A stretch of DNA of 64,000 nucleotides, taken from assembly GCA_003971905.1 (NCBI GenBank), contig RSEE01000072.1, forward strand, positions 124,001 to 188,000, given 5' to 3'. Source of the DNA: Moniliella sp. 'wahieum'. Taxonomy: Eukaryota. The position numbers and the translations under genes are program-made. Shown here piece by piece: positions 32,016-49,861 of this stretch (within the stretch, counting starts at the first letter, position 1; each line of letters begins with the position of its first letter). The notes under the pieces are model-generated. The model saw only the letters and a program-made list of their open reading frames with translations, was not told where the DNA came from and did no database searches.

Positions 32016-33439
32016 TCCCCCGCATTTACTTCCCTTGATTTGACACGGCACACCCGGGGGTTCCGGGGGTTGTGCCTTGCGTGGGACTCTCAGTCGTGCA
32101 TTGGTGCACCTGTCAATGCATCCAGCTCGGTCTCCTTTTTCATGCGCCCTGGATTGGCTTGTTTCCAATTGACTTGTATTCTAGCCTAGAGAGTCACAGG
32201 TGAGGACGGGGTGTGGTGTGGGCGACCCGAGCCCATCCGCCAGTACCCATCAACATGGGTGGCTGCGAGGCCGATGCTGGGCGAGGTGTAGGAGGACTCA
32301 GCCGATCGATGAGAAGCAATGCAAAGGGATGTATCGCAAAGTAGTATTAGGACGAAGAGAAGAAGATGGGTAGGAGTACCACTGGTTGGAGAGTAAGGAA
32401 GGGTGTGGGGCGGGGGGTCAGCCGTGGGGACAGGGGTGGGGTGCAATATTGCCAAGTACTGTATGAGGCGTAGGTGCTCCTAGCACTACCCTGTTACACT
32501 TTAAACGCCATATATAAGAGCCAGAACAAGGAAATTTCATACAGGCGAAGTCCGCAGCCGTGTGTTCAGCGTTCTGTTTCGGGTGCAAACACGTTGGCGA
32601 GTGAGCTCACTCCTAACACGCCTCAGTACCTCAGTCCCATACGCGGCGGAACCTCTGACGTTGTCTTAGTACGTCCGAAAGGTTTGCCGCTCTCAGATCT
32701 CATTAATCATTGGTTACGAACAAATGTTGTTGGCAACATTTGTTGGCTCACCTGGCCATGGTCTGAAGCGCCACTCCCGATCGCCCCCGTCCTGACGGCT
32801 TCCACCTCCAGTCTGAAGTCGATCTGAAGCCAGAAGCTTGAAGACTGAAACTCAGTCGCTCGGTGTCGAAACGCAAGCCCACAGTCGTACCTTGTCCGGA
32901 GACACTCTCACAAAGCTGATGCTGGTGATGATCCCGATCATCGATCATCGGCTATCGAATCGGTCATCGATCATCAGTCACGAGTCAGTTCCACTGCTGC
33001 CAGGCTGGTGGCGCGTGCACTCACAACTGGCGTCCGCACGGCGCCAGCGCTGGACAGTGAGCAGCTTGCTCACACTGCCCGTGTGCTGTGCTGCTCATCT
33101 CAAATTCTCAAATCAACAATTAAACTACACCTGGGTCCGGGCACGGCGCCAGTCTCGGCGGAGGTCGACCCACCCCATCATTAACGTTTAACTGCTTTCC
33201 GAGCACCACCTCAGGCCTCAGGTAAGGGCTCAGGCGCTCAGGCCTCTCAGATCTCATGAACAGGAGCAATACGCACCAACAGCCTTCAAGTGAAGCTTTA
33301 CATCTACACCCGCGACGATCGCATCCACTACGCCGTCCGCGTATAAGAGACCCACTGATCTGCCTCGTCCCCCGTTCCCTCCATCCCCACCCACTCCAGC
33401 ACCACTCGCGTGTTACCAACAGCACCCCCCCAATTCGCC

Positions 33440-35470
33440 ATGGCTCCCGTTGAAGGCACCATCACCCTCACCGACTATCTCTGCGAGCGCTTGAAGCAGC
33501 TCGAGGTTGAGTTCGTCCAGGGCCTCCCTGGCGACTTTACCCTGGCCATGCTCACGCGCTGGCGTGAGCGTGGCCTGGGCTGGATCGGCAACTCCAACGA
33601 GCTCAACGCCGGCTACTCGGCCGACGGCCTGGCCCGTGTCCTGTCCGAGGGCCACCCCCGTCCCGCTGTGCTCACCACCACCTTTGGTGTCGGCGAGCTG
33701 AGCGCATGCAATGCCCTCGGTGGCAGCATGGCCGAGCGTCTTCCCGTCATCCACATTGTCGGTACGCCCTCGACCAAGGCCCAGGACGAGGGTCTCCTGC
33801 TCCACCACACTCTTGGTACGTTTTACTCTCCCGCATCACCGCCCGTCCGCCCCACTATATTATGTTGTTGATCGTGCATCTGACCTTTTGCTCCCTCTAC
33901 CAAGGTGACCACAAGTTCGACGCCTTCCTCAACATGGCCCGCCAGATCACCGGCGCCCAGCTGGACCTCTACCAGATGCACCGTGAGGGACGTCTGCCCC
34001 TGATCCCCAAGGGCACCCAGGCCGAGGACATTACCACTGGCCTGGACGCCTGCCGCGCCATTGACTCGATCCTCGAGTTCTGCATTTCCCGCTCTCTCCC
34101 CGTGTACATTGGTTACCCTTCCAACTTGGTTGACCTCCCCCTGCCTATCTCGGCTGCCAAACGCCTGGTGGACTACAAGCTGCAAACCACTGTCACGTCC
34201 AACAACGAGGAGATCGAGCTCAACGTGCTCGACGAGATTGTCAAGCGTGTCAAGGCGGCTACGCAACCCATCATCTTGGTTGACGCTTGCGCTTCGCGCC
34301 ACAACGTCGTTGCCGAGACGCGCAAGTTTGCCGAGGTCACTGGCCTCCCCGTCTTCTCCACCCCCATGGGCAAGACGACCGTCACGGAACTCAACAACGC
34401 CCAGTTTGGTGGCGTGTACCTCGGTAGCCTGAGCAAGCCGGCGGTCAAGGAGATTGTGGAAAGCTCCGACTTGATCCTGTCCGTCGGTGCCCTCCTGTCG
34501 GACTACAACACTGGCTCCTTCTCCTACCGCACTAAGCGCACCGCCACGATTGAGCTTCACTCGGACCACACCAAGATTGGCTACGCTGTCTTTGACGACA
34601 TCAAGATGAAGTGGCTCCTGCCTAAGCTTACGGAAGCTCTCTCGGGTGAGGGTGAGAAGCGTCTTTCTGTCACCAAGTCGCTCCTGGCTCCCGTTCGCTC
34701 CCTGACGCTCAACGCGATCCCCTCGGTCGAGGAGCAGATTGGAGCTCGACGAGCTTACCCTCACGCGCCTTGGTGGTCCCGAGGGCTTCAAGTCCAAGGA
34801 CGTCATTTCCCAGGGCTACTTCTGGCCCCGCATGGGTCAGTTCTTCGGCGAGGGCGACGTTGTTCTTGGCGAGACGGGTACCTCGTCCTTCGGCCTGATC
34901 GACGTGACGTTCCCCAAGAACGCCAAGCTGATTGCGCAGATGCTCTGGGGCTCGATTGGCTTCACGGGCGGTGCAGTTTTGGGTGCGGCGCTTGGTCTGC
35001 GCCAGCTGCAACAGCACAACCCTAACCGCCCTGGCCGCGTTGTGCACTTCATCGGTGACGGCTCCCTCCAACTTACCGCACAGGAACTCGGCACTGTCTT
35101 CCGTCACGGTCTGACGCCTCTCATCTTTATCCTCAACAACGATGGGTACGAAATTGAGCGCCAGATCTTTGGCCCTGACGAGTTCTACAACGACATTGCG
35201 ATCTGGAACCACTCGAAGCTGATTGACTTCCTCACGCCCCCACCTACCTGGACCAAGCCCAACGTGCCCTCGCACGAAGCCGACCCGGTCCCATCTAAGA
35301 CCCAGTTCCACGCTGTCCACACCAAGGCCGAGCTCGAGGCGCTCTTGACCGACCCCGAGTTCAACAAGGCCGACAAGGCTCACGTCGTTGAGGTCTTCCT
35401 CCCCCGTGGCGACTCGCCCCCGGCTCTTAAGCGCCAGGCCGCCCTCTCCGCCGCTAACAACGCTGCCTAA
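33440..35470 (+). CDS. PDC: Thiamine-diphosphate-dependent 2-oxoacid decarboxylase (pyruvate decarboxylase family)
   Basis: GLPGDF, NELNAGYSADG, TTFGVGELSA, LLHHTLG, LLSDYNTGSFSY, ETGTSSFG, LWGSIGF and the ThDP motif GDGSLQLTAQE...NNDGYEIER. Intron 3' of LLHHTL. Strong GC3 codon bias. Confidence 0.93.
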
Positions 35471-37307
35471 GCCCCCCCCTTTGACGCATCCAACGAACTC
35501 CAGACCAACACGAAAAAAACTATCATGCCCGGCCTGCTTCACACACTGCTTTCTTGTGATCTCTATATCCATTCTCTCACCCAACTCATATCTTTGGATT
35601 GGTTCGTTGTACAAAGATATATAGGACGCATATGAGATGCATTTCGTTGCAGAAGAGATGGACTACTACTATATATACCTCGTCTATATACGGCAGCGAC
35701 CAGAGACATATATCAAGGGGCCTGGGGCAATCGGGGGATCAGCAATGGAAGTGAGCCACACTGCGCGACAGGGAAACGCAGGAGGTACGGAGTGCGTACC
35801 GGAGAGTGGTGCACGAGAGCACTGCGTCGCCTTTGGAACGCCGGGAGAAGGTGCTGCTTCAGCTGCTGGAACAAGCAGAATGCGACAAGAACGCCAAGTA
35901 CCAGGGGCGCGCTCAAAAACTGTTTTCCCCTTGGTTTTGACGACGCGAGGATACTACAGCACCAAGACACAGCGGGCAAGATGTTTGCGCATTGGAAGGA
36001 TTTGGCTACTGAGTCTCTCAATGGAAATGGCTCTTCGCTCGGATGTCAACCACGTTCATCCATGTCCACACGCGCTACCTAGGGTACGGGACCGGATGGC
36101 AAACCCACCAGAGGGTCCTGATATCCTAGCGATCCCCCTTGTTTTCAACATTGGTGCCGCTACCAAGTAACTCCCGCAAGATGAACGGTTCACAGTTTAG
36201 AAGCAGCGTTTCCCTGTCCCAGCCTTATTAAGTTCTGTCGATGATATGGATGCAGTATGTACAAGGAGAACGGGACTAGATAAAGAACTGGGAAACAGTC
36301 GCCATCATGCTGGAGAAGACCGCTCCTGGGTGTAGGACATGGAGGACACAAGAGGCCCCGCAGCGGTCCGTCTCAAACGGGAACCAAAGGTTGGTCGCTG
36401 GAACAGAAAAGATAAACAGCCCAGAAGCGACAACTTTCTGTTACGACTGTTTAACAGCGCATCAGGTCTCTTCCATCGAAACGAATCCGCAGAGACTTGG
36501 AATTCCATCAGGCTCCATAGAAATACTCCTCACACGCCAGTTGCCGGACGGCTTCATCGACTCTCCATCTTGGGTTTTCACCTAAATCAAGGACCTCTCC
36601 CTGCTAAAGGGTGGGAGAAGGGGAAGATGGAGGTTGTGTCATTCTAGGAGACCTAGGCGGACTGATGGTAGACATAAAAGGGGAGAGCCGGAGTCAATAA
36701 CAGAGTGGGTAGGGTACGTAAACCACATGCAACCATGTGGTTTAGTCTACGTGATCACGCTGACACTCCCGTCCCCCCATACGGGCCAAAGTCATCTTTT
36801 GAGCCTGGAAGTAGAACTTTTTCCGGTGACGGAGGAAGGCGGAAAGAGAGCGCGAAGACAGACTCGATTCTCTAGGCTTGCCGGTCCATCTGCCCTCATG
36901 ACAACTTATGACTGTCCCTCCATCTTCGTCTCATACAAAATTGATCACATTCCAAACAAACCCTCATTGACAAGGGTTTTCTACTTCAGTCAAAGAGACC
37001 GGTAATAAGACTGATAGCATACCCCATTTCTACCCAACCGTAGTGTGTGGTATAATCCACAGGATAAGGAAAAAAAGCCGTAACACAAAAACCACGCGCA
37101 TTTGACTCTTCACAATGAACCTCCCCTGGCAGAATAGGGGTGTAGGAAAGCGAAACGGCGATTGTCAAAATTTCCGGAAGGGAATAACTGATGGAACATA
37201 GAATGGAAGGTACGTGGGCCCAAAAAGCCTAAACAAAAATCGTACTCGTGTGGCATAAGAGAGGGACAGTGCGACTTCACCTTCTCCTTCTCTAGTATCC
37301 CTTACAA

Positions 37308-40159
37308 TCACGCGCGGGCAATGCTGCCGTTGGTGATCAGCGGTACACACCACCCGGAGAGGAGACCACCATAAGTGTATGTCGTGTTCGCACACACCGT
37401 CCCATTGGGTGTGGGCGCAAATACGGCTCCTGTCCAATCGTTGTCATATACCAACCCATTGAATTGCAGCGTCTTGTCGTTCACTGCTGATGCACCAAAT
37501 CGGGAATCTGTTTCTCGGTTGAGCGAGTATTTCTGCAAGATGCCCATGGCGAGCATGCAAGTGAGCGACGAGCCGATGGAGAGGGCACCAGAGAGAGTAT
37601 TTCATCCTGTCACATACGCCGGCGGAGGAGGGAATTGTCAGTAAGAGAAAAGACGCCAGCCAACTTTTGTTGGGGGAGGGGGGGGGGGGGAGACGCACGA
37701 GATCCAGTAGTTGCTTTGCCGCGACCGGTTGAAACAGTAGGAAAACAGTAGGCCAAAGAAGGACCATGAAGTGTAGCTAATCGCATTATTGGACGTCCAG
37801 TTGGAGACGCACCCAAATATCACCGGCACAACGATCCAGACTGGTCTGACGCGGTAAATCATCGGCCGCCATAGCGATAAGGCATAGACTGGGAGGGGTA
37901 GCAAGGCGCCAATCAAGAAGCCATACAAAGTCCAAGAGTAGAGACGTAGAAATCCATCATGTGGCCCCACACCGCCCCAGTATTCCACATCGGCCTCGTA
38001 TGGAAACAGATTGGATGCAGCACTGTTTGGTACCAAATAGGCCTGGGTGTCATCCCTTGTCGCTTTCTCTCGCAGGATCCAGAACCCAGCATGGACCACA
38101 CCACAGACGAACTGCACACCAACTTGGACAAAAAGTTGGTACGGGGAGGAATCTTGAAGTAATGGCACAGCTTGGAGCCGCCAGCAAAGAGCGCCGCCTG
38201 CTGGACCACATTGCTGCTGAACAGGCTGAACAGAACGAGGCCAGAAGTGTTGTGCACGAATATGAGGCCTGCAAGGAGACATGAAAAGTGACGAAGAGAG
38301 ATTTGGACCCCTGTGATACCCTGAACTAGGCAGATCGGAACGAGAAACACTAAGGCCACAAGAAGAGCGACGACCAAACCCCAGACAGGGAACCCTGTAT
38401 GGTACACGTGCATTGCTGGAATGCAAAAGGCGAGGCACAGACCTAAGCACAAGATTCCACCATGCAGGCACATGCTTATAGTTGGTCAGGATAGCACGCG
38501 TGTGAGGATCGTACGCGCTAGGTGGTTTGTGCCGTAGCCAGTGGAGAATATCAGCCCCATAGAAGAGTCCGACATAACCAGCACAGATGAAACCGCAATA
38601 AAGGAGAAGAAGATGGCCGTAACACCCATGGCGGTCAAGTACGGAAACGAATAATCGTTATAGTCATTTGATGAAAAGACGATTGGCTCCTCCAGGGAAA
38701 GGTTCTCTGCGTGGAGGCTGAGGTATTGGTACGTCGCCGCCGTGTAATCAAAAGGATCCCTAGAAGTGAAGGGGATATTGGCCATGTGCTGAGTATTTGT
38801 ACACATGAGCGCCACCCCGACCACACATCCAGCCAAAATGACCCCTATTAATACGCATACAAGAACATGCGGAGGGACAATCAAGGGAGACAGTCCCATG
38901 CCCGTCACAACCTCGTACCAATCGAGGGAGAGCATGTGCAGGCCCAGACCACCATCGCCGCCAAATATGAGGTTGACAGTGAAGGAATCGGGAGCCATCC
39001 AAGGTAAGAAGCTGAATGTTTGCAATGGTGTGAAAAAGACCGTGGCACCCACTCCCATGCGGAGATAAGCACTAGTGCGCCCCAAAATACTGTTCGCATA
39101 GGCCAATGGGCAACCCGAATTCCGTGCAAGGCAGTCAGCACAGCAGACGTCTCAAGCTGCACGGGCCAGACGAGCGCCTCGGGCCACACAAGCACCTTGT
39201 GGGCCAGGTTGGCAAGAGGGAAGCCGATGAGAGGAGCGGCAATGGAGATAAGAACGATAAATCCATGTTGCCATGCTACTGGTTGATAGCTGTGGCAATT
39301 CACGGCGGCTTGGCAATGTGCGTTCGACAAGGCGGCAAGCATCAGAAGGGTCTGGTTAGGGCCCGTGGTGATTCCAGCAATGATGGTAAGGAGCCTTCAA
39401 TAACAAAAGGGGTTAGAGTCACTAATATAGAGCAGAGAGGCTTGAGATGCAGAATAGGAGAGGATCGAGCTTACGCATGTTCCTTGCAATTGAAGGGGCC
39501 GGGATTGAAGAAGCGTTTGTAAGGCCAGTGGTCGGGATATGGAATCATAGACATGAGCAGGCCCACCCCATATGCGAAAGGCTGTATAAAGACGGACCCC
39601 AGCAGCGTCGAAGCATCGCCACGGTAAAGACAATGTCCAGCTCAAAATACAATACCGATAGTCCGACAGTAAGCGTGGATCCAATCAGCCAAACACGCAC
39701 CGTGTTGATGGGCAGTGACGGGTCATCCTGGTTGGGCACTGTAGCGCGAACTTGGGGCAGAGAGGAAATGGCTTGGTTAAGATCACCGTCGGTATCATAT
39801 CCATTTTCTTCGTCGACCACGGGGATGGGGGTGGTTCCATCATGGGTCGTGTGTTTGCTCGAGCAACTGCTCTGGCCCGTTTTCGTATCATATCCAGAAA
39901 GCCGATGGGTCATCTCGAAGGTTGATTCACGGTCAAGGTCCATGATATCTTGTTCGTTCCAGTCTGCAAGCCTATACCCATGAAAGTCGCTTGGGTTGAC
40001 GGAAGTAGGGCGGATGGGAGGAGGGGTGTCGCCAATTGACGCCGTTTCAACGTGAATAATGCCATCTCCGTTTGCCGTCAGCGGCTCTCGATCAAGGTCG
40101 TCGTTGGAGAGGTGCGACGGCCGCGGCGCAGCATTGGCAGCGGGCGTGGCGTTCCACAT
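37308..40159 (-). CDS. OPT-family oligopeptide/glutathione transporter (divergent, lower GC)
   Basis: PQVRATVPNQDDPSLPINTVRVWLIG, PFNCKEH, LVWPEALVWP..L, NLIFGG.GGLG...LSLDW, SPLIVP, VPI..VQGITG, KLCHYFKIPPRTNF and YWGGVGP. Multiple indels; intron ~37639-37705. Confidence 0.85.
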
Positions 40160-40799
40160 GGGCAGGAGGAGTGGTTGTACTCTGGAGGCAACCAACGGGA
40201 AGAAGTGGCGGTGTATGGCAGCAGCTGGCGACAGAACGCCCCCCGCGGGATAGAGGTGGTGGAGAGGGTGAAGCGGAAAGAGGTAAAAGTGGCCACGTGT
40301 GTCTATACATACCGACCGTGCGCTTTTTCATAGTGGCTCCTTATTTGTCGTGGCGAACACCCCTGATGAAGGCGTGCCGTTGCCGCAACTCCGGTGGGTG
40401 CCCATTCGGTTAGCAGCCGCTGTGGCGCAGCGAATTAGTGCGCCGCTAAGATCTAAGAGAAGCCTTCTCCTACATCCGATCAAAGCAACTCCGCGCTCAC
40501 CTCCATCTCTTCCGCTCGCATCCATCAAGTTTATCGCTGACACTTGCGGCGGAAGAGTTCCGCTCTCACAGGCTGCGTACTCTCGCTCCTATTGAGCCTC
40601 ATTTTCTTTTCTGCCGTTGTTACAAGACTTGTGGCTCACGGCTTTGCCCTCACGCCTTGTCTGAAGGCTGCTTGGCAGCTGATCCATAGGATCGCTGAGT
40701 TCTCCCCAAGTCGCACTCTAGCATCGCGGACCTCCCGACAAGATTTTATCTGATGACTTCCGCTGGACTATCACAACAGAATTTCCATATTAATCTTGC

Positions 40800-41027
40800 G
40801 GTGGACAAGGACAAAGCACAGCTCCCGGTCGTCGAGCCCCGGCAGGGGTAACAGTCATCGTCGACCGTCCGCTCGAAGCGCCCCCGTCGTTGACCTTCAA
40901 CTCGCTCCTGTTGGGACTGAGGCATGACCGATATCTTGATGCGACGGATACCAGGCAAGCCCATGCCACCAGGCGTGGCTGACTCGGTTCCGCCGGTTGC
41001 TGCGCCCAGGCCAGTCAGTACGACAGG
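40800..41027 (-). repeat. Diverged inverted copy of transposon-internal segment 45631-45830
   Basis: Its reverse complement shares, in the same order, CCTGTCGTACTGACTG, AACCGAGTC, GCGAGTTGAAG, TCAACGACGGGG, CGCTTCGAGCGGACGGTCGACG and GCTTTGTCCTT with 45631-45830. Confidence 0.85.
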
Positions 41028-41204
41028 GATCACCGCACTGAGAGTAACAATTCGGTGCCAAGGTCCCCAAAGAGACGAGATCATTGCGGGGAGACAACGA
41101 CCACTGTGACTTCTATAGTACATCGGGGGGGGGAGGGTTCCACGGCAAGGCTTTTGGCCTGCGAGTTGCAGCCTTTTTGCAACGCGATGTGCACACTCAG
41201 CCTC

Positions 41205-41228
41205 TACATAGCTAATCGAAATTTCTAG
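41205..41228 (+). repeat. Left terminal inverted repeat (24 bp perfect, imperfectly extending to ~38 bp)
   Basis: TACATAGCTAATCGAAATTTCTAG. Confidence 0.95.
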
Positions 41229-41230
41229 CC

Positions 41231-41400
41231 CAGAACCTTGCCGGCCACACCACAAGCTTGTCTTTAGATTTGAGGGGCACAACCTTGTCACAGCCTCGCC
41301 AACACAGCTAGCCCCAACCTCTTGGACCACACTGCGGCAAGGCCGCCCAGCGAGGTTGTCCCTAGATTGCTGCCTATAAAGTTCGTCACAACCTTGCCCG
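41231..41400. repeat. Left subterminal repeat array, consensus CACAACCTTGYC
   Basis: cagaaccttgcc (41231), cacaagcttgtc (41251), cacaaccttgtc (41278), cacagcctcgcc (41289), cacaaccttgcc (41387). Confidence 0.8.
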
Positions 41401-41632
41401 CTATTCTAATCACAATATTGTGAACGGCGGCCAGCCTCGAGCCATCTTAAAAAGATGGCCCCCCACGAATTGAACCTGAGGTTTCTCCAGCCAACAGTAG
41501 GAATTGGCCGTTGCACCACCATTGGAGCCTAAGACTCCCGCAGCAATTTGGCAATCTTTGGACAGCACACGTGCTGTGTCCGCTTTCAGCCAAATCGTTA
41601 AAAACTGATAGACTGATGGTGTAGAGTATACA

Positions 41633-44600
41633 TCAACAGTGGTGACTACCATCATTAGTGGCCATTCGGGAAGGATCTAAAGGTTCATTACGGATTGTAC
41701 TGCCTCCAATACATCGTCGGCAGAAGGACATTCTCACCCTCGACCGCCCAGTCCTGGGCAAAAGCCAAGTCCCCAAGTCGCAGAATATCGGTGTGGGGAG
41801 AGAGACAGAGTTGACAAAGTGGTTGAGCAAGTAGCGCTGTACCGCCGACGTCGCAGACAAGTTGTGCTGGAGCCCATCGGACGTCAAGCCAGTGGTTGTA
41901 TCCGTAATGCTGTTGGGGACAACCCGGCACTTTTTGGCCTTCACGCAATTGTGCTGGACGTTAAGCGGGCCAAAGATGGTGTGGATCTGCGAAGCCGGAA
42001 TGTAAGTCATGCGTCGGGCGGACGCGCGCGGTAGCTCCAGGCCTCGCATGTCATATGCCGAGTCGATAGGCATGATGCGAGCCAAAGCGACCTTGACCCA
42101 AAGCACAGGGAGCACAAGGTTGGAACCAGTCCTCGCTGCTCCCGACCCCCCCTCGCGAGAGTCGGATTGGCCCGCCGGTGCACAGCAACCACATATTAGG
42201 CCGTTGGGCGGCAATGTGTTCTATCCGGCCAATGGAGAAGGGCGGCGTATCAGGATTCTGGGCATGGCGGGGTGGGAGGACTTCACCAATATCCTGTTGG
42301 GCAACAAGCACCCAGTCCCCCTAGCACAAAGCTGGCCATGCTGTACGCGGACCAACGGCATGTCGACAATATCTTCGACCGGCCCAGTGGCAGAACACCC
42401 CTCTGCTGTCATTGGTTCAGGAAGCCCCATCTTGTCGTGCACCGATATGACTTTGGCCTTAGCCACAGTCTGGATCGAAGCCGGACACGATGCAGCGCTG
42501 GAAGGGCTGTTGCGGCCCGTACCGGGTGCGGGAGGGACTTGCCACACACTGCCAAGCCCTTGGCCCAAGAGCTGAATCGTCGTGCCAGCCTGAGGTGGTG
42601 TAACATTCAATTGCAAAAATCTGCTGGGCCCCTGCCGATCCAGACGTCTGCGGACAATTTCTTGGTGTTCCCACCGGGCAAACCCTGTGTCACCTCCTCC
42701 CCTTTTCATCGTCAGGGGTTGTATCGCGGGGCACGAGTTTTGCAAGCGGCATGTCGATTGCCCGCCCTCCACATAGCAGGTTTTGCAGGTTCTCCTGGGC
42801 TGTTATCTTGTAGTTCAAGTCATGGCAAATATCTTTTTGCGGTTCGTAAATATGACCGCCTTGCGCATGACGCGGACAAACTCCTCCTCACGCTGTGTGT
42901 CAGCGTTCTTGAGAGGACCCCACAACAGCGCCTGCTGGGAGAGGTGACTCTGAAGGTGGAACTTGGGGCGACGAACGAGCATGGCCGGGTCGATGGCAGC
43001 GATGGCCATGAAAATGTGAATCACCGCCTTGTCAAGCAGTTCCTGTGGGCACATATGTACGGGGCAAAATGTAAGCTGTGAACTTGGACTAGAGAAGATG
43101 ATCACGGGCCCATGAGAGCTAACAGTTTCAGACGTACGCCATATGTAGCCCGGTCTTGAAGTGCGAAGCCATCGATGTAGCAAACCACTTAATGCGTGTG
43201 GCGGCCACAATGCTCTTGCGGACATTCTCCAGCCTCTCAATCTTGCTCAGAAGTCTCTGTCGCGCCGTTTCCGTGACGCCAGGCTTGGCGGAGTCCAACC
43301 GTAGCGTGGCCGCTAAGTTGGGCAGCACCAGAGGGAGAGTTTGGCACAATATCTTGTAGTCAACCCCGTGACTGAGCGCATGCTGTGAACCACTTTAGTG
43401 CATTGAGCCGTCGACCCACCGATTCCATACCCCACGAGTTGAGAGCGAATCTAGCCACAGCGCTAGCGAGGGCCCCTTGTCGAAGTTCGAGTCCGTCAGC
43501 AGCTCGATCGAGGCCTTGACTGGCCCAAGGAGAACTGTGTGCATGACGTCGATCGCCAGGCTCTTGTTGCCGACCGAGAAACTCGAGCACCCCTGCCATT
43601 CGTGGACAGTCAAAGGGGGTTGAACACGTAGCCGTTATTCTTGAACCCATCCAGCAGCTCACGAACGCCGGAGTACAAATTGGAAAGCAGCCTCTTGCGC
43701 TTCTTGCCATTCGTCGCCCCTGCTGAGTCCTCCAGAGTCTTGCGGGACTTGAACAGGATAAAGGATACGTCTTTCATATACTTAACCCCGGTCTGGCTCG
43801 CCCGGTCGTCGACACGGCCGTCGTTCTTGACGACCATGTCGAGTTGGTGATCGACTTCGCGGCTAGTTTCGACACTTGAATGTAGATCGCCTTCCGACTT
43901 GATGTGTCCGCCGGTAATAGTCAGTCCCATTTTGATGCACAACAGTAACACCAGTGGTGTCGTATACGCATCAGACAGTCAGCCACGTTCTCCGGCAACA
44001 TATTCGTTCCCCGTTGCCATCCGCAATCGCAAAAACGGCAGCACACGTGGGCAGTCATGTCCATAATGGAAGCCATCTCGTTCGCGGCCACGTTGTCGCC
44101 CTTTATCATCTGCAGCACGGGCTGTACAACAGGATCCATCCCTCGGTGGTCGAATCCCAGACAGGGATGAGCTCTTCGTGATACTGCCTGCAAGTTCGAA
44201 AAAGACGTTAGCATGCTGCTTTTGCCCAGGAATCACGGTGACTTCAAAGGCAACTTGGCCTAGACTGCGATACTCACTCTAGCTGTTTTACCAACTGCTC
44301 GCACAACGGGAAGAGAGACTTGGCCGTTTCCGATGCAAAGAGAAAAGATTCTTTGCCCATCTAGATTGCGACAACCGTAAAACGTGCATGTTGTTCAGCA
44401 GCATATGCCGTTCAGAGGGCTTGGCCGATTGGACACATTGCCTGCAAAACCATCAGCCCAGCCCCAGCTGGAGACAGACCAGAGCTCGGCCACAGGTCTT
44501 GGCTCGAAGGGGATTGACGCCCTTCCCAATTTCCTCACCGTCCCTTGTTCCTGTGTCGTACCAGGATGTGGAAGTCATCAGTCAACCCGACAAGAATTGC

Positions 44601-45228
44601 CGCTGCGTGAAGAGCGAAAAAACTTACCAATGGTATAGTCGTCATAGAGGCGCAACTTGGTTATGTCCACCTGAGTAAGAATGAAGGCGCGTGTCCTCTC
44701 TTGCCGGTGAACTTCAGCAGGTTGGACGTCTCGTCTTGGACCAGGTCGATTCCGATCCCGTACCAGGAGTCGCTATCAGCGTCGCGTTGCCACAAGACGG
44801 GAAAGATAGGCGCGAAAATGCCGACCAGGGGAACAGATTCGCCAAGGTACATGTGAATAGCCAGATCGCGTGGATGCTTATTGACCATGACCATCGGCTG
44901 AGTCCTTGTGCCGATCAGATCCCATCGTCCCTTGTGTGGTTGTTCAATGAACCCGTCCTTGAGGGGTTGGACCATCGCCCTGAGCGACCAGGGATTGGGA
45001 TACTGTGACATCTTGGAGCGCATGGACGAGTTCGAGGACATGTACGAGGTGGAAAATGCGGTCTCGCCCGAAGGAGACCCAATGTACATCGTCTCCTGAT
45101 ACAATCTGCTCGATGCACACGAGGCGGGCACACCTTCTCGATTGCCTTTTAGTTTTGTTGAGCGAGTAAAGAGGCAATTTCCCTTCGCTCTTGCCCGCGA
45201 CTTGTGCGAATGTGGTCTTCTCTCGCAA
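41633..45228 (-). CDS. Fungal CMC/EnSpm-like DDE transposase (~1,200 codons, split by indels)
   Basis: Motifs in order: QPMV...HMYLGE, NPLRAK..GR, ADGFAGNVS (1st Asp), GDNVAANE.AS...CCRFC (2nd Asp plus C(2)C), IDVMHTVLLGPVK ([M/L]H), RPKFHLQSHL....WGP....TQREE (H(3)H plus Glu), GDWVLV..IGRIEHI and LNVQHNC....C. These match the C(2)C/[M/L]H/H(3-4)H signature of CACTA-Mirage-Chapaev transposases. Confidence 0.8.
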
Positions 45229-45561
45229 CGAGACGGTTGGACTGGAGTATAGTGCTGTATATAGCTGCTGTCACGCGTCACGACTATCTCAAGTGCGTAG
45301 CTTAAAAAACTCTATATATATACTGAACGCCCAGGCTGCAGGTGGGCGCCTTGAGCTGGCGGTGGCGTGCGGGGGCAACACTGGCGCCATGCGGGTGGAC
45401 CGCCGGTGGACCACCGGTAGTTGCGCCTATAACCGCACGCAGCTGCGCCGATGCTCTTGCCTCTCAACTACCACCACCACCGCCACCGCCCCTCTCTCGC
45501 TGGCCACACACTGTGCTACCGGAGCTGGTGACATGTGTCCGGCTCGTTGCGCTGCCATTAT

Positions 45562-46215
45562 ATGCCCCCCCCCGACGCGCTTGCTGTGCTAGCGCCTGGC
45601 CTCGGTATGTCCACGCCCTCCGGGCGGATGCCTGTCGTACTGACTGACCTACGCGCAGCCACCGGAACCGAGTCGGCAACGCCTGGCGATCCCTGATATC
45701 CTTTGCGCCAAGATGCCGGTCATACCTCCCGCAGGCGAGTTGAAGATCAACGACGGGGCGCTTCGAGCGGACGGTCGACGGCGACGGTTTCCCCGGCCAG
45801 GTCAGTACCTGCGCTTTGTCCTTATCCGCCCATATACTGACAACGCCTTTAAGCAGGATGAATGGAGAAGGCGCTCAAGTGTTGAGGAAACGACCACAGA
45901 ACATGTGCTGGCTTGCACACAGATCATCGTTCGCCGTATGGTTGCGGGACTCATTCTCCCTCTCGAACGCGATGACGCTTCGCCCCCACGCCGCAAGTTG
46001 TATGGCTCTTGTTCTTTGCCCTTCTATCCCTATCATCTCGGCGTCCCCATGATGTTTTTGGTCCGCGATTAAACGACGAAGGCAAAGCTTCTGTGGTTGC
46101 CGCCGTCCCGAGGCTCCTCGAACAACCTGCCGTTGCCTTGGCGCTCCTCTACGTCTCTGTGTCTAAACAACCATGGCAATGCATGCTTTTAAAGATAATC
46201 CACTGCCTGATCTGA
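45562..46215 (+). CDS. Putative second, spliced gene inside the transposon, divergent from the transposase; product unknown
   Basis: Two canonical-looking introns: 45605-45658 (GTATGT..TACTGAC..CAG) and 45801-~45856 (GTCAGT..TACTGAC..AG). ORF 45713..46072 spans the region. A TATATATATA run at 45313-45322 lies between it and the transposase. Confidence 0.4.
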
Positions 46216-46226
46216 TAGCATTGTGG

Positions 46227-46286
46227 CACCCTAGCCATCACCCTAGCCACCACCCTAGCCACCACCCTAGCCACCACCTTAGCCGC
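46227..46286. repeat. Five tandem 12-bp units CACCCTAGCCAC in the right subterminal region
   Basis: caccctagccat caccctagccac caccctagccac caccctagccac caccttagccgc. Confidence 0.9.
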
Positions 46287-46527
46287 CAGCCTAGTGAAAA
46301 TATCTGTGGCTAGCCTTGCCACCAGCCTGCCGGCAAGGCTGCGGACTGTCCGGGGATAGGTGGGGGATAGGTGGGGGTAACCTGGGGCCAACCTGTCGGG
46401 TATAGATTGTCTCGACCTTGGCGACCATCTTGCGCAAGCTTTTCTTGTACAGGGTTGTGGCACTTCTAATCATAGACTCACGGTATCAATTTCTCACCTT
46501 GAGGCGAGATCGGCGGCAACGTTGTGA

Positions 46528-46551
46528 CTAGAAATTTCGATTAGCTATGTA
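46528..46551 (-). repeat. Right terminal inverted repeat
   Basis: CTAGAAATTTCGATTAGCTATGTA, the reverse complement of 41205-41228. Confidence 0.95.
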
Positions 46552-46718: not shown

Positions 46719-49700
46719 CTACACCTGTGGGGCGTCTTGACGAAGCTTGTTGATGTGCTGGTAGAACTGAACGTGAGAAGCGCCCGAGCCATGAGCATAG
46801 ATGAAAGACGCAGCGACAAAGGCAGCAAAGGCCGAGCGGGCGTACGCTGCAGGGATGCGCTCCACCAAGGTATCCAGCCCCACCTTCTTCCGCAGGGTAG
46901 TGGGGAAAACATGGGCCATCACACTGCGTCGCACCACATCGTCGTCGTACAGGTTGGTCGCAGCAATCTCATCAGACAAGACGTTGAGTGCAGTGGAGAG
47001 CTCCGTGGAAAGGACCGAACGAGGACGAGAGGTAGCTTGGTGTTCGCGCCAAATTGCCTCAAACTCCATGGCTGCATTGCGAGCGATGATCGACTGGATG
47101 TCCCGCACATATCCAAGATAGAAGGGAGTAGGCTTGCCTCCTTGGAAGGTCATGTTCTGTAGGAACTCGTCATCAGTGAGCGACAAGCCGCACAACACCT
47201 CGAGTGACGACGAGGTCACGCCACCCTTGTTGGCGCTCGCGTCAGGGTAGAGAATGACACCGTGCTTCTCTAGTTCAATCCGAGCCTGGCGGGTGATGAA
47301 CAGGTTGGCGCCCTCGACAATGTACTTGAAATGGGGCTTTCCATCAGCATCAAACAGTTTGCCAACGTTCGAGATGCTGATTGCCTCGGGCCGTCCACCA
47401 CAGGGAACAAACAAGTCGGCTTGGAAGTTGAGATGTGCCGTGTTGCGATACGACAAGCCGTCCGGCACCACCTCGCCCGACGGGAGCGTCACATCCTTGT
47501 CCTCCACCAGGACGCGGAAGCCGCCCTTGCCCAACTTGGACACGTCAAAGTGATTGATCATCTTGCGCGTTTTGGCCAGGCGGATCAGCTCGGGACGGTC
47601 CAAGCCGGAAGGGTCGCGGATCACACCTGAACCATCAATGATCGTCGTGGTGCGGTCCGAGGAGAGAAGGATCTCGTTCGATCCGAGGTCCCCATCAGGA
47701 CCTCCAGTCTGAACCTTGGTAACGTCTTTCTCGTTCAGGCCGAGGCGACGATACAAGCCCAAGACGTATTGCCGCACCGATAGAGACGTCATGCCCCAGA
47801 CATCATGGGCACTCCACCAAGTGTGGCGGCCGTCTTTCCCGTCGTAAACGATTTCCACCACGGAGCACCGCGGGCCCGAGCATGTTCAGCGCCCCAGTCC
47901 ATAAAGTCGGCCGTGCCCTCGTCAGGACCAAAAAGAGAATCTCTTCCTTGCCATAGAGATCAACAATCTCCTCCTTGACCCCAGGTGTTTCGCCCTTGAT
48001 GAGCAAGTCGATCACCGCATCAACATACTTCTCAAAACACAGCTTGGGGTTGGCATCGAGAGTGGGGAGGATGGTGCCCTTGGACCCGCCTTCAGGAATG
48101 TCCTTGTTCTTGAGGTGCTGGGTCGATGCCAGACCGTAGTTCTCATCAAAGAGCGTACGCTGGTTGATCGAGTAATTCTCCTTGTTGCGAGAGCGGACAA
48201 TGCGAATTCCTCCACGAGCAATGTCCGAGAACCGAACGTGGAACCCACGGAAGTCTGAACCAACGACAAAGAAGACTCCATACGGCTTAACGGGGTACTC
48301 CACCTCGGGAAGGAATCCCGGGTCCAAACGGAATGAAAGAGCGACCTTGGTGGGCGTGTAAAAGTTGGTCTTGAGAACACTCTTGTTGAAAGCCAGAAGT
48401 GCTTCCAGCACCTGGAGCTCATGGGTGCTGGTGGTGGTCTTGCGGATGCGATCATGGATCTGAGCGTCAGTCAGAACCTCCTCCTTCACCAGGCGTTGGT
48501 ACGACAAGGTCGGGACCAATTCATCTTCTCCTGCCCCCCCAGGGTAATGGATGTTGGCAAAATGAACGTAGAGCAGACGGATCAGGTCCGGGTAGCGCTC
48601 CAGCACGTCTTGGATGCCCTCCCGAGTGAAGGTTTCTTCACGGAAGCGGGTCTTGATCTCGTTCAAGATCGACGCTTGGGCCGGGTCAGTATCGTCCAGG
48701 ACGTTGCGCAAGGCTTGGTATGACTGGCCCAGGCGGTTGCAAAAGTGTTGGGCAAAGAGCCAGCCGACATATGCATAGGTGGCTTCCTGGACCGCATGGC
48801 CTTCTTGTTGGTTGGCTGGATCCCCAACTTTGAAGAAGGGGTTGTCCGGTAGAGCATAGAGCAAGGACGCCTCACGCATAATCTGGTTGATCGAGTGGTC
48901 GATGGGAGGGTAGCCAGAAACCGGGAGCGGGTTGAGGTACGCGCACAGAATGGTAACCCCGTTGCTGAACTGCTCAACATACTTGCGCGAGGAAAAGAGA
49001 CCATAAAAGTGGTAGAGATCACTAAAACTGGAGAAGTAGTTGTTGGTAGAGCCTTGGCGGTAACCAATGACCACGCGGTGCTCGCTGCTTCCCTCGACTT
49101 GGTACACCTCTGGGGGGAAAAGAAAATAGAAGGGTCAGCATTCAGTACAAAATACATCCAAAGGGAAAGGCGTACCAATGACAGGGCCGGAACGGCGAAG
49201 AACCTCGGTCATCACTTCCTCGTACATGGCGAGCGTGTTCTCCGATGCACGGGTGAGGAAGTTCTTGTCCGACACTTTGCGGATATCGGTAAAGTCAGGG
49301 CTACCGGGTTGAGGTGCCGCTTGAACGAAGTCGGACTTGGTGAGGAAGTAGCAGCGGAGCTGTTCCTTGGACTGCGCAGAAACCGACCCGGCCGAGCGGT
49401 ACGATTCGAGGCGGTACGAATGGTCCGCACTGGTCTTGTTCAGGTAGCGCTCGTCAATGCGGCGCTCCCAGCGGGGCTTTCCTTTGGACAAACGTGCGAG
49501 TTGAGAAGAATGGATGTAGAGTGCTCCCGAGCCGTCTTCGGCCTCCTTCTCAAGATCAACGTCGAGGCTGGGGTGTGGTTGGTGTAGGCGAGAATCTTGG
49601 CGCCATAGAGGGCCATGATGTGGTCGCCAATCGTGGCGGGCGACTCGAGGGCAAAGTAGTTGTCGTCGATGCCGAGGCTGTGGTAGAACCACTCGACCTC

Positions 49701-49861
49701 GGTCTGGACGAGGCCGGCGGGGATGAAGGCTTTGGCGCGGAGGAGGTCGGCCACCTTGGCGGCTTGGGCGTCCTTGCCGGTAAAGACAGGCGTGGCGTAT
49801 CCGGCCTGATTGGGCACGACGTGGTCGGCGGGTGTGCCGGGCGGCTGCGGAGCGACGCCAT
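46719..49861 (-). CDS. GDH2: NAD-specific glutamate dehydrogenase
   Basis: VFTGKDAQ, EVEWFYHSLGIDDNYF, KTNFYTPTKVALSFRLDP, FRGFHVRFSDIARGGIRIVRS, KNKDIPEGGSKG, QTGGPDGDLGSNEI, FVPCGGRPE, VEGANLF and DASANKGGVTSSSLEV. Confidence 0.96.

Follow-up and report, generated by a model that had tools for sequence, protein, structure and literature searches.

A 64,000-nucleotide stretch of the Moniliella sp. 'wahieum' genome (GenBank assembly GCA_003971905.1, contig RSEE01000072.1, forward-strand positions 124,001 to 188,000; hereafter the window) contains a DNA transposon that spans positions 41207–46549, is 5,343 bp long and is bounded by 22-bp terminal inverted repeats (TIRs) reading CATAG..CTATG. 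That this is a real element is virtually certain. The target-site duplication (TSD) of its family was found to be any 2 bp, with TA being enriched yet dispensable. The best overall explanation, which we consider probable, is that the window holds a recent copy of a cut-and-paste transposon of the CMCT clade (CACTA/Mirage/Chapaev, or CMC-like), likely of the lineage of the fungal elements ESTA and CNEST, and that this copy is probably defective.

Termini and target-site duplication

A preceding sequence-only reading of the window had described a perfect 24-bp inverted repeat, and this was confirmed: the 24 nt at 41205–41228 and 46528–46551 are perfectly complementary, and the inverted repeat at the element ends reaches 39 nt at 90%. 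That reading allowed two parses, either TACATAG termini with a CTC TSD or CATAG termini with a TA TSD. Other TIR-bounded copies and an empty site, proposed at the time as a check, were both found. The empty homologous locus, on contig C123 (its left flank matches at 82% identity, its right flank at 97%), reads CAGCCTC-TA-CTCTCGC with one TA. Given that insertion of an element with TACATAG ends would leave no TA in the empty site, the first parse is refuted. The TA at the outside of the 24-mer belongs to the target duplication, which leaves a TIR of 22 bp. In other copies, homology breaks off at the C of CATAG, and the 2 bases outside it match as TA, GA, TC, TG, TT or CC.

We surveyed TSDs at 51 TIR pairs from fetched loci, consisting of 12 full-length elements, 6 elements of 3.6 kb and 33 miniature inverted-repeat transposable elements (MITEs), the MITEs coming mostly from 30 of 46 CATGG matches. 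A matching 2-bp TSD was present in 37 of the 51 insertions (7 of 12 full-length, 3 of 6 of 3.6 kb and 27 of 33 MITEs), for which the chance expectation is 0.067 per site (P = 2e-32), and a 3-bp match was present in 2 of 51. The 37 matched TSDs fell into eight dinucleotide classes: CA/TG (9), TA (9), AA/TT (6), AG/CT (5), CG (3), CC/GG (2), GA/TC (2) and AT (1). The share of TA, 9 of 37, compares with a background of 2.6% (P = 3.5e-7). The CATAG parse with a TA TSD therefore holds for the window copy but not as a rule of the family. Counting against a variable 2-bp TSD are the 14 of 51 insertions that lack a matching duplication; some of these show a single transition or altered termini, and others may be recombinants. 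We hold with great confidence that the family has CATAG ends and a variable 2-bp TSD. For one 3.7-kb copy (L049, contig C115), the best reading of the ends is CGATAG..CTATCG, which adds one base to the usual terminus of the family, and the duplication is GC.

The 22-nt TIR pattern starting CATAG gave 114 genome matches at ≤2 mismatches, compared with 0 for a reversed control. Near-full copies besides the window element numbered 10 at 92–99% identity plus one at 78%, a lower bound obtained by scoring 40 of 63 candidates. Subfamily A consists of the window copy, L032 and L033, subfamily B of six copies, and two copies are outliers. Non-autonomous derivatives comprised 3.6-kb internal-deletion forms and MITEs of ~117 bp, whose distinctive end had 64 genome matches. 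Recent amplification of the CATAG family is supported by these sequence comparisons, and the earlier description of a complete, apparently young CMC-like transposon is borne out by the ten copies at 92–99%.

Subterminal repeats, likewise claimed beforehand, were recovered as a 12-bp array and as CACAACCTTG-like motifs. At ≤1 mismatch, the outermost 260 bp of both ends together carry 6 such motifs and the interior of 4.8 kb carries 0; at ≤2 mismatches, the counts are 13 and 7, respectively. Motifs resembling CACAACCTTG are also visible in MITE ends. We regard the subterminal motifs as putative transposase-binding sites.

Transposase gene and protein family

The transposase gene is encoded on the minus strand, where the motifs WADGF, KGDN, CRFC, DVMHT, HLQSH and QREEEF follow one another in the expected order. 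The best match to a profile hidden Markov model (HMM) of the homologue family was 4.4e-18 in the window and 4.3e-32 in copy L041, and the catalytic motifs are all retained in most family copies. A large minus-strand open reading frame (ORF) with D/D/E, C(2)C, MH and H(3)H motifs had been proposed; the motifs stand, but the single large ORF does not, with the longest stop-free minus-strand frames inside the element being 216, 195 and 193 amino acids and the gene being interrupted by three predicted introns and many frameshifts (Table 1). The longest unbroken core frame, of 376 amino acids, occurs in copy L041 (contig C35), which is without ~480 bp of the 5' region.

Table 1. Features of the transposon in window coordinates.
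Feature	Position	Strand	Basis or remark
Target-site duplication, left copy, TA	41205–41206		Single TA between the flanks of the homologous empty site, contig C123
TIR, 22 bp, start CATAG, downstream end of the transposase gene	41207–41228	+	Copy homology stops at the C of CATAG
CACAACCTTG-like motif cluster, subterminal	41231–41422		4 at ≤1 mismatch, 9 at ≤2
Transposase gene, frameshifted, approximate extent	41816–45311	−	Collinear HMM matches to the homologue family; first open frame 45311–44661
Catalytic Glu, middle E of QREEEF; family ExFESFN	42884–42886	−	HMM; family motif aligned with SEGNESGN of RAG1
H(3)H motif, HLQSH	42944–42958	−	HMM
Predicted intron 3, 95 nt, weaker branch site	43043–43137	−	Without it, the consensus of subfamily B has a frame of 442 aa
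MH motif, DVMHT; family EILH..LLG	43536–43550	−	HMM
C(2)C motif, CRFC	44029–44040	−	HMM; both C and the R unchanged across 52 homologues
Second catalytic Asp, KGDN; family GDNPM	44095–44097	−	HMM, i-E 4e-6
Predicted intron 2, 90 nt, GTGAGT..GCTAAC..CAG	44188–44277	−	Splice signals
First catalytic Asp, WADGF; family consensus DDxSGNxSKKWNKH, degenerate here	44452–44454	−	HMM, weak alone (i-E 6.6)
Predicted intron 1, 77 nt, GTAAGT..CAG	44551–44627	−	Splice signals
12-bp tandem array, subterminal	46227–46294	+	Repeat search
CACAACCTTG-like motifs, subterminal, upstream end	46334–46526		Motif scan
TIR, 22 bp, end CTATG	46528–46549	−	Inverted repeat, comparison among copies
Target-site duplication, right copy, TA	46550–46551		Empty site
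i-E, independent E value; aa, amino acids.

Pfam found nothing above cut-off in 8 frames of the element, and a word-based search with the 376-amino acid frame of copy L041 against longer proteins retained 0 of 4,738 candidates. An unfiltered phmmer search with a 344-amino acid frame of the same copy returned 13 proteins, 12 of which form one family with the pattern DDxSGxxSKxWNKH / DNPM / CRxC / LHxxLLG / KPKxH / ExFESFN; the other match, the beta-propeller repeat protein P0012, was dropped as spurious. The nearest homologues are only 24–34% identical to the element protein. The named members come from the basidiomycetes Tilletia, Plicaturopsis, Trametes and Sporobolomyces and are annotated as hypothetical proteins, in agreement with the earlier expectation of a fungal family annotated in this way. 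The homologue-family profile matched 710 proteins at E ≤ 1e-20, with no Pfam domain on the 120 listed. Among 14 homologues, PF02992 (Transposase_21) was detected weakly in 6 (best score 18.3 bits, against a cut-off of 28.6), and PF18759 (Plavaka) was detected at E ≤ 1 in 0 of 14 family members and in none of the element's frames.

To describe the fold, we relied on a structure model of the homologue P0010, for which the predicted local distance difference test (pLDDT) score was 51 overall and 70–90 over 244 residues. The model matched RAG1 with a Z score of 11.1 (root-mean-square deviation 5.1, 420 residues aligned), followed by ProtoRAG (10.2), Transib (9.3) and the P element (8.4), with the next match at 6.1, and Foldseek also ranked RAG1 first (E = 4e-6). 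The top PDB sequence match of the family profile was again RAG1, although weak (E = 0.036), with the glutamate motif aligned to SEGNESGN of RAG1, which we take to hold the catalytic residue E962. The model of the element's own 344-amino acid fragment (pLDDT 68) covers a mostly helical insertion region without RNase H strands, and fold searches with it gave no match at E ≤ 0.001, the best being Z 7.6 to unrelated helical proteins. The fragment model thus says little about the RNase H-like DDE fold foreseen for the transposase, which was recovered for the homologue. The P0010 model suggests that the protein family has a RAG1-like RNase H fold, with the element linked to P0010 by HMM homology.

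Of 60 metagenome loci encoding the transposase family, the 36 that include some sequence beyond the ORF were scanned for CA[CT][AG]GC, a motif that was refined after a first look requiring TA and was then run without TA. A TA stood ahead of the motif in 16 of its 21 occurrences upstream of the ORF (14 CAC and 2 CAT), in 5 of 8 downstream and in 0 of 11 inside the ORF. The two upstream CAT ends read TA-CATGGC, and one contig spans TA-CACGG to GTG-TA. A metagenome scan with P0010 alone yielded 44 stretches, none of which were related. Because the metagenome relatives end TA-CAC[AG]GC, the transposase family has the signature of ESTA and CNEST.

State of the transposase gene

The possibility that the transposase is intact had been raised on the ground that host genes carry the same indel rate. 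Host genes are indeed visibly frameshifted in the assembly, the two haplotypes of a glutamate dehydrogenase (GDH) gene differ by 12 indels in 3,086 nt, 11 of which are of 1 bp, and private indels in element copies, mostly of 1 bp, occur at 1 per 280–380 nt, the same order as in host coding sequence (~1 per 500 nt per haplotype). Together with the retention of the catalytic motifs in most copies, these rates would fit an autonomous and intact element in which every frameshift, including shared ones, is an assembly error. The fixed differences between subfamilies A and B do not resemble such errors. Over the 3.7-kb gene interval there are 27 fixed indels, with lengths of 2 bp (15), 3 bp (6), 1 bp (4), 7 bp (1) and 8 bp (1), so that 21 of 27 are of 2–3 bp in contrast to the nearly uniform 1-bp indels of host coding sequence. 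Polarization against three outgroup copies identified 20 insertions (19 of 2–3 bp), 6 deletions and 1 mixed event. Nine 2-bp frameshifting insertions in the ORF are specific to subfamily A, the window copy included, and are absent from the outgroup copies. Consensus sequences from which the three predicted introns had been removed still change frame between motifs 8 times (A) and 5 times (B), and gap-filling between the two subfamily consensuses did not yield a single frame. We therefore consider an intact element unlikely.

The uncorrected ratio of nonsynonymous to synonymous differences (pN/pS) lay at 0.34–0.48 where the split is older, while recent comparisons gave 0.65, 0.85 and 0.46, indicating purifying selection in the past that was lately relaxed in two of the three recent comparisons. 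We judge from these sequence patterns that the window copy is probably defective and was probably moved in trans. Several points weigh on the other side: the value of 0.46 belongs to a recent comparison, that of subfamily B with copy L041; stop codons in the sampled motif frames are few, at 0–3 per comparison; and systematic assembly error may produce shared indels.

Relation to known elements

Published elements were compared by their descriptions in two papers. According to Kojima 2025 (PMC12730594), the CMCT clade has CA..TG ends and 2–5-bp TSDs; ESTA elements have a TA TSD and RAG1-like transposases, all 72 of the 72 ESTA families examined start with CAC, and their hosts are rusts and one Agaricus; and PlavakaB has CATCA ends with 2–3-bp TSDs. 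CNEST is an active 7.2-kb element of Cryptococcus neoformans with 33-bp CACGG TIRs and a TA TSD, whose transposase was annotated as hypothetical and was missed by Repbase (PMC12810828). The element boundaries, first put forward as new, are accordingly of lower novelty, since such boundaries have been published for ESTA (PMC12730594) and CNEST (PMC12810828). Among the papers searched, none described a CATAG-ended fungal EnSpm-type TIR element.

The window element has the CMCT features. C(2)C and H(3-4)H separate the second D from the E of its DDE triad, the degenerate first D being placed by position; its termini are 5'-CA..TG-3' with a TSD within 2–5 bp (PMC12730594); and homologue P0010, to which it is tied by HMM homology, has a modeled RNase H fold related to RAG1 and Transib. 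As in ESTA, the CMCT motifs and CA..TG ends are present, RAG1 is the best structural match (here for the homologue family), the TSD is 2 bp, the hosts are basidiomycetes, and relatives of the element protein end TA-CAC[AG]GC, as do ESTA families starting CACAGC or CACGGC (PMC12730594). It differs from the ESTA elements described there in its CATAG or CATGG ends in place of CAC, in a TSD of any dinucleotide rather than TA (despite the TA at the window locus), in its length (5.3 kb versus 6.6–14 kb for full-length ESTA) and in its ustilaginomycete host. With CNEST it shares the basidiomycete CMC-type character, short TIRs, a 2-bp TSD and a transposase annotated as a hypothetical protein; unlike CNEST as described, it is 5.3 kb rather than 7.2 kb long, starts CATAG instead of CACGG, has a variable rather than a TA TSD and is probably defective rather than active (PMC12810828). 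The element functions in the manner of ESTA and CNEST, but because it lacks two of their stated features we class it as a variant of that kind rather than a member. That it belongs to the ESTA/CNEST lineage we consider likely, on the strength of termini, TSD and fold.

Against this assignment, ESTA and CNEST are TA-specific with CAC ends and the CATAG family is neither; the link was drawn from termini, TSD and fold; the RAG1-like fold was taken from a homologue modeled at low overall confidence, and the first Asp of the element is degenerate; and by features, Plavaka clusters come closest in the ESM Atlas (0.95). The last point, the low identity to the nearest homologues, and CAT ends with a variable 2-bp TSD, which are closer to PlavakaB than to ESTA as described (PMC12730594), would suit a Plavaka-type element or a separate CMCT lineage. 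PlavakaB has CMCT motifs and a basidiomycete host as well, but its TIR differs from that of the element beyond CAT (PMC12730594). The absence of PF18759 from the family members and element frames searched argues against such a placement, the closeness of the ESM features notwithstanding, as does the TIR start itself: CAT[AG]GC is one transition, at TIR position 3, from the CAC[AG]GC of the relatives. We consider a Plavaka-type or separate origin quite improbable.

CACTA/EnSpm elements proper share with the window element the D/D/E, C(2)C, MH and H(3)H motifs and subterminal repeats, and its homologues match PF02992 weakly; the ends here are not CAC..GTG, the TSD is 2 bp versus 3 bp for fungal EnSpm, PF02992 does not rise above cut-off, and no second, TnpA-like gene was recognized. 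Taken as rules for the family, the CACTA-like parse (TACATAG ends, 3-bp CTC TSD) and the parse with strict TA specificity both have next to no likelihood, for although the window copy is flanked symmetrically by both CTC and TA, and TA is enriched among the TSDs, the empty site retains TA between two CTC and other copies begin CATAG after GA, TC, TG, TT or CC duplications.

Related families and genomic surroundings

A second family with the same transposase group comprises five copies of ~9.2 kb at ~99% identity, with CACGGGCGG ends (CACGGGCGGGTGTG); it is a CACGG-ended family. TSDs of TA, GG, TT and CT were found in 4 of the 5 copies, which shows that relaxed target choice in this host extends beyond the CATAG family. 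The copies lie on C3, C16, C19, C153 and C20 (L163–L167, L170–L174) and have long open frames and an N-terminal Cys/His motif; the C153 copy has the same right flank as the C16 copy. The 9.2-kb family is a better candidate autonomous element than the CATAG family, but it is unlikely to be a helper for CATAG elements because its TIR differs. A third related transposase is represented by two degenerate copies on C127 and C44 (L168, L169, L175–L178) inside multi-kilobase inverted repeats; element ends were not found for it.

The host GDH is 78–79% identical to that of several Ustilaginomycotina genera and 66–71% to that of named Agaricomycotina; the host is a ustilaginomycete (smut-related) fungus. 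Flanking DNA of the element has counterparts at 93–94% on other contigs, and C123 is therefore probably the other haplotype or a homeologue. The gene for this NAD-specific GDH (46743–49838) lies directly to the right of the element and has a 98% counterpart on C123; four further 3'-end matches at 78–81% suggest several copies.

To the left, positions 33016–41044 contain pyruvate-decarboxylase-like and oligopeptide-transporter-like genes, named by reading of frames. Paralogues of this block at 91–94% identity lie on C154 and at another place on C72, and C123 has part of it. About 5.4 kb of the window (35655–41044), ending 160 bp from the insertion site, is extra compared with C123. An inverted remnant of an older transposon relative occupies 40800–41044, and a longer remnant is present in the C154 and C72 paralogues. 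Flank capture, considered for the inverted 73% match between 40800–41031 and 45627–45830, was rejected in favor of this older-relative remnant, which continues in the paralogues. The notion of an old element carrying the decarboxylase and transporter genes as cargo was dropped, there being no matching TIR near the left edge of the block. Two repeats were also noted: a 540-bp high-copy repeat at 35718–36259, with 84–88% identity to at least 39 other places, and a repeat of ~115 bp at 40609–40725, found on many contigs and unrelated to the CATGG MITE, part of which also lies inside family member L111.

Discussion

On the basis of the biochemistry of RAG1, Transib and CACTA transposases, the transposase would bind the TIRs and subterminal motifs, its DDE site would excise the element, and the ends would be joined to the target with a 2-nt stagger, repair of which would give the 2-bp duplication. 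The CAT[AG]GC start may have arisen from the CAC[AG]GC of the relatives by a single C-to-T change. The window copy and its subfamily, the 3.6-kb derivatives and the MITEs would have been mobilized in trans by a transposase not identifiable in the assembly.

A distinct branch of the ESTA/CNEST group with relaxed target specificity is a description that we narrowly favor. A bolder version, in which a smut-lineage branch lost TA specificity and the 2–3-bp tandem duplications in the transposase gene are its own scars, we consider quite improbable. A transposase with a 2-bp stagger and its MITEs may have left such footprints through successive rounds of insertion and excision, or through integration that was aborted, and the predominance of 2–3-bp insertions among the fixed indels speaks for them; if the idea were true, the family would inactivate itself through self-targeting. 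Indels of 2–3 bp are also common in host paralogous DNA, however, at 6–10 per 100 substitutions versus 12–16 in the element, and a general mutational bias is therefore more likely than transposase footprints as the source of the duplications.

The surprise is modest, given that CA..TG ends with a 2-bp TSD fall inside the published CMCT range (PMC12730594). The ESTA/CNEST kind was described recently; what is new here are the CAT ends, the free 2-bp TSD and the smut-related host. The findings extend the ESTA/CNEST type to Ustilaginomycotina, a group characterized as repeat-poor in a survey (PMC5751038), and tie a large basidiomycete family of hypothetical proteins to TA-CAC-ended elements of this type. 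With regard to annotation, the family would escape both Pfam and filters for CACTA ends. Finally, with TA-specific relatives on the one hand and the nonspecific CATAG family on the other, target choice by a RAG1-like transposase becomes comparable.

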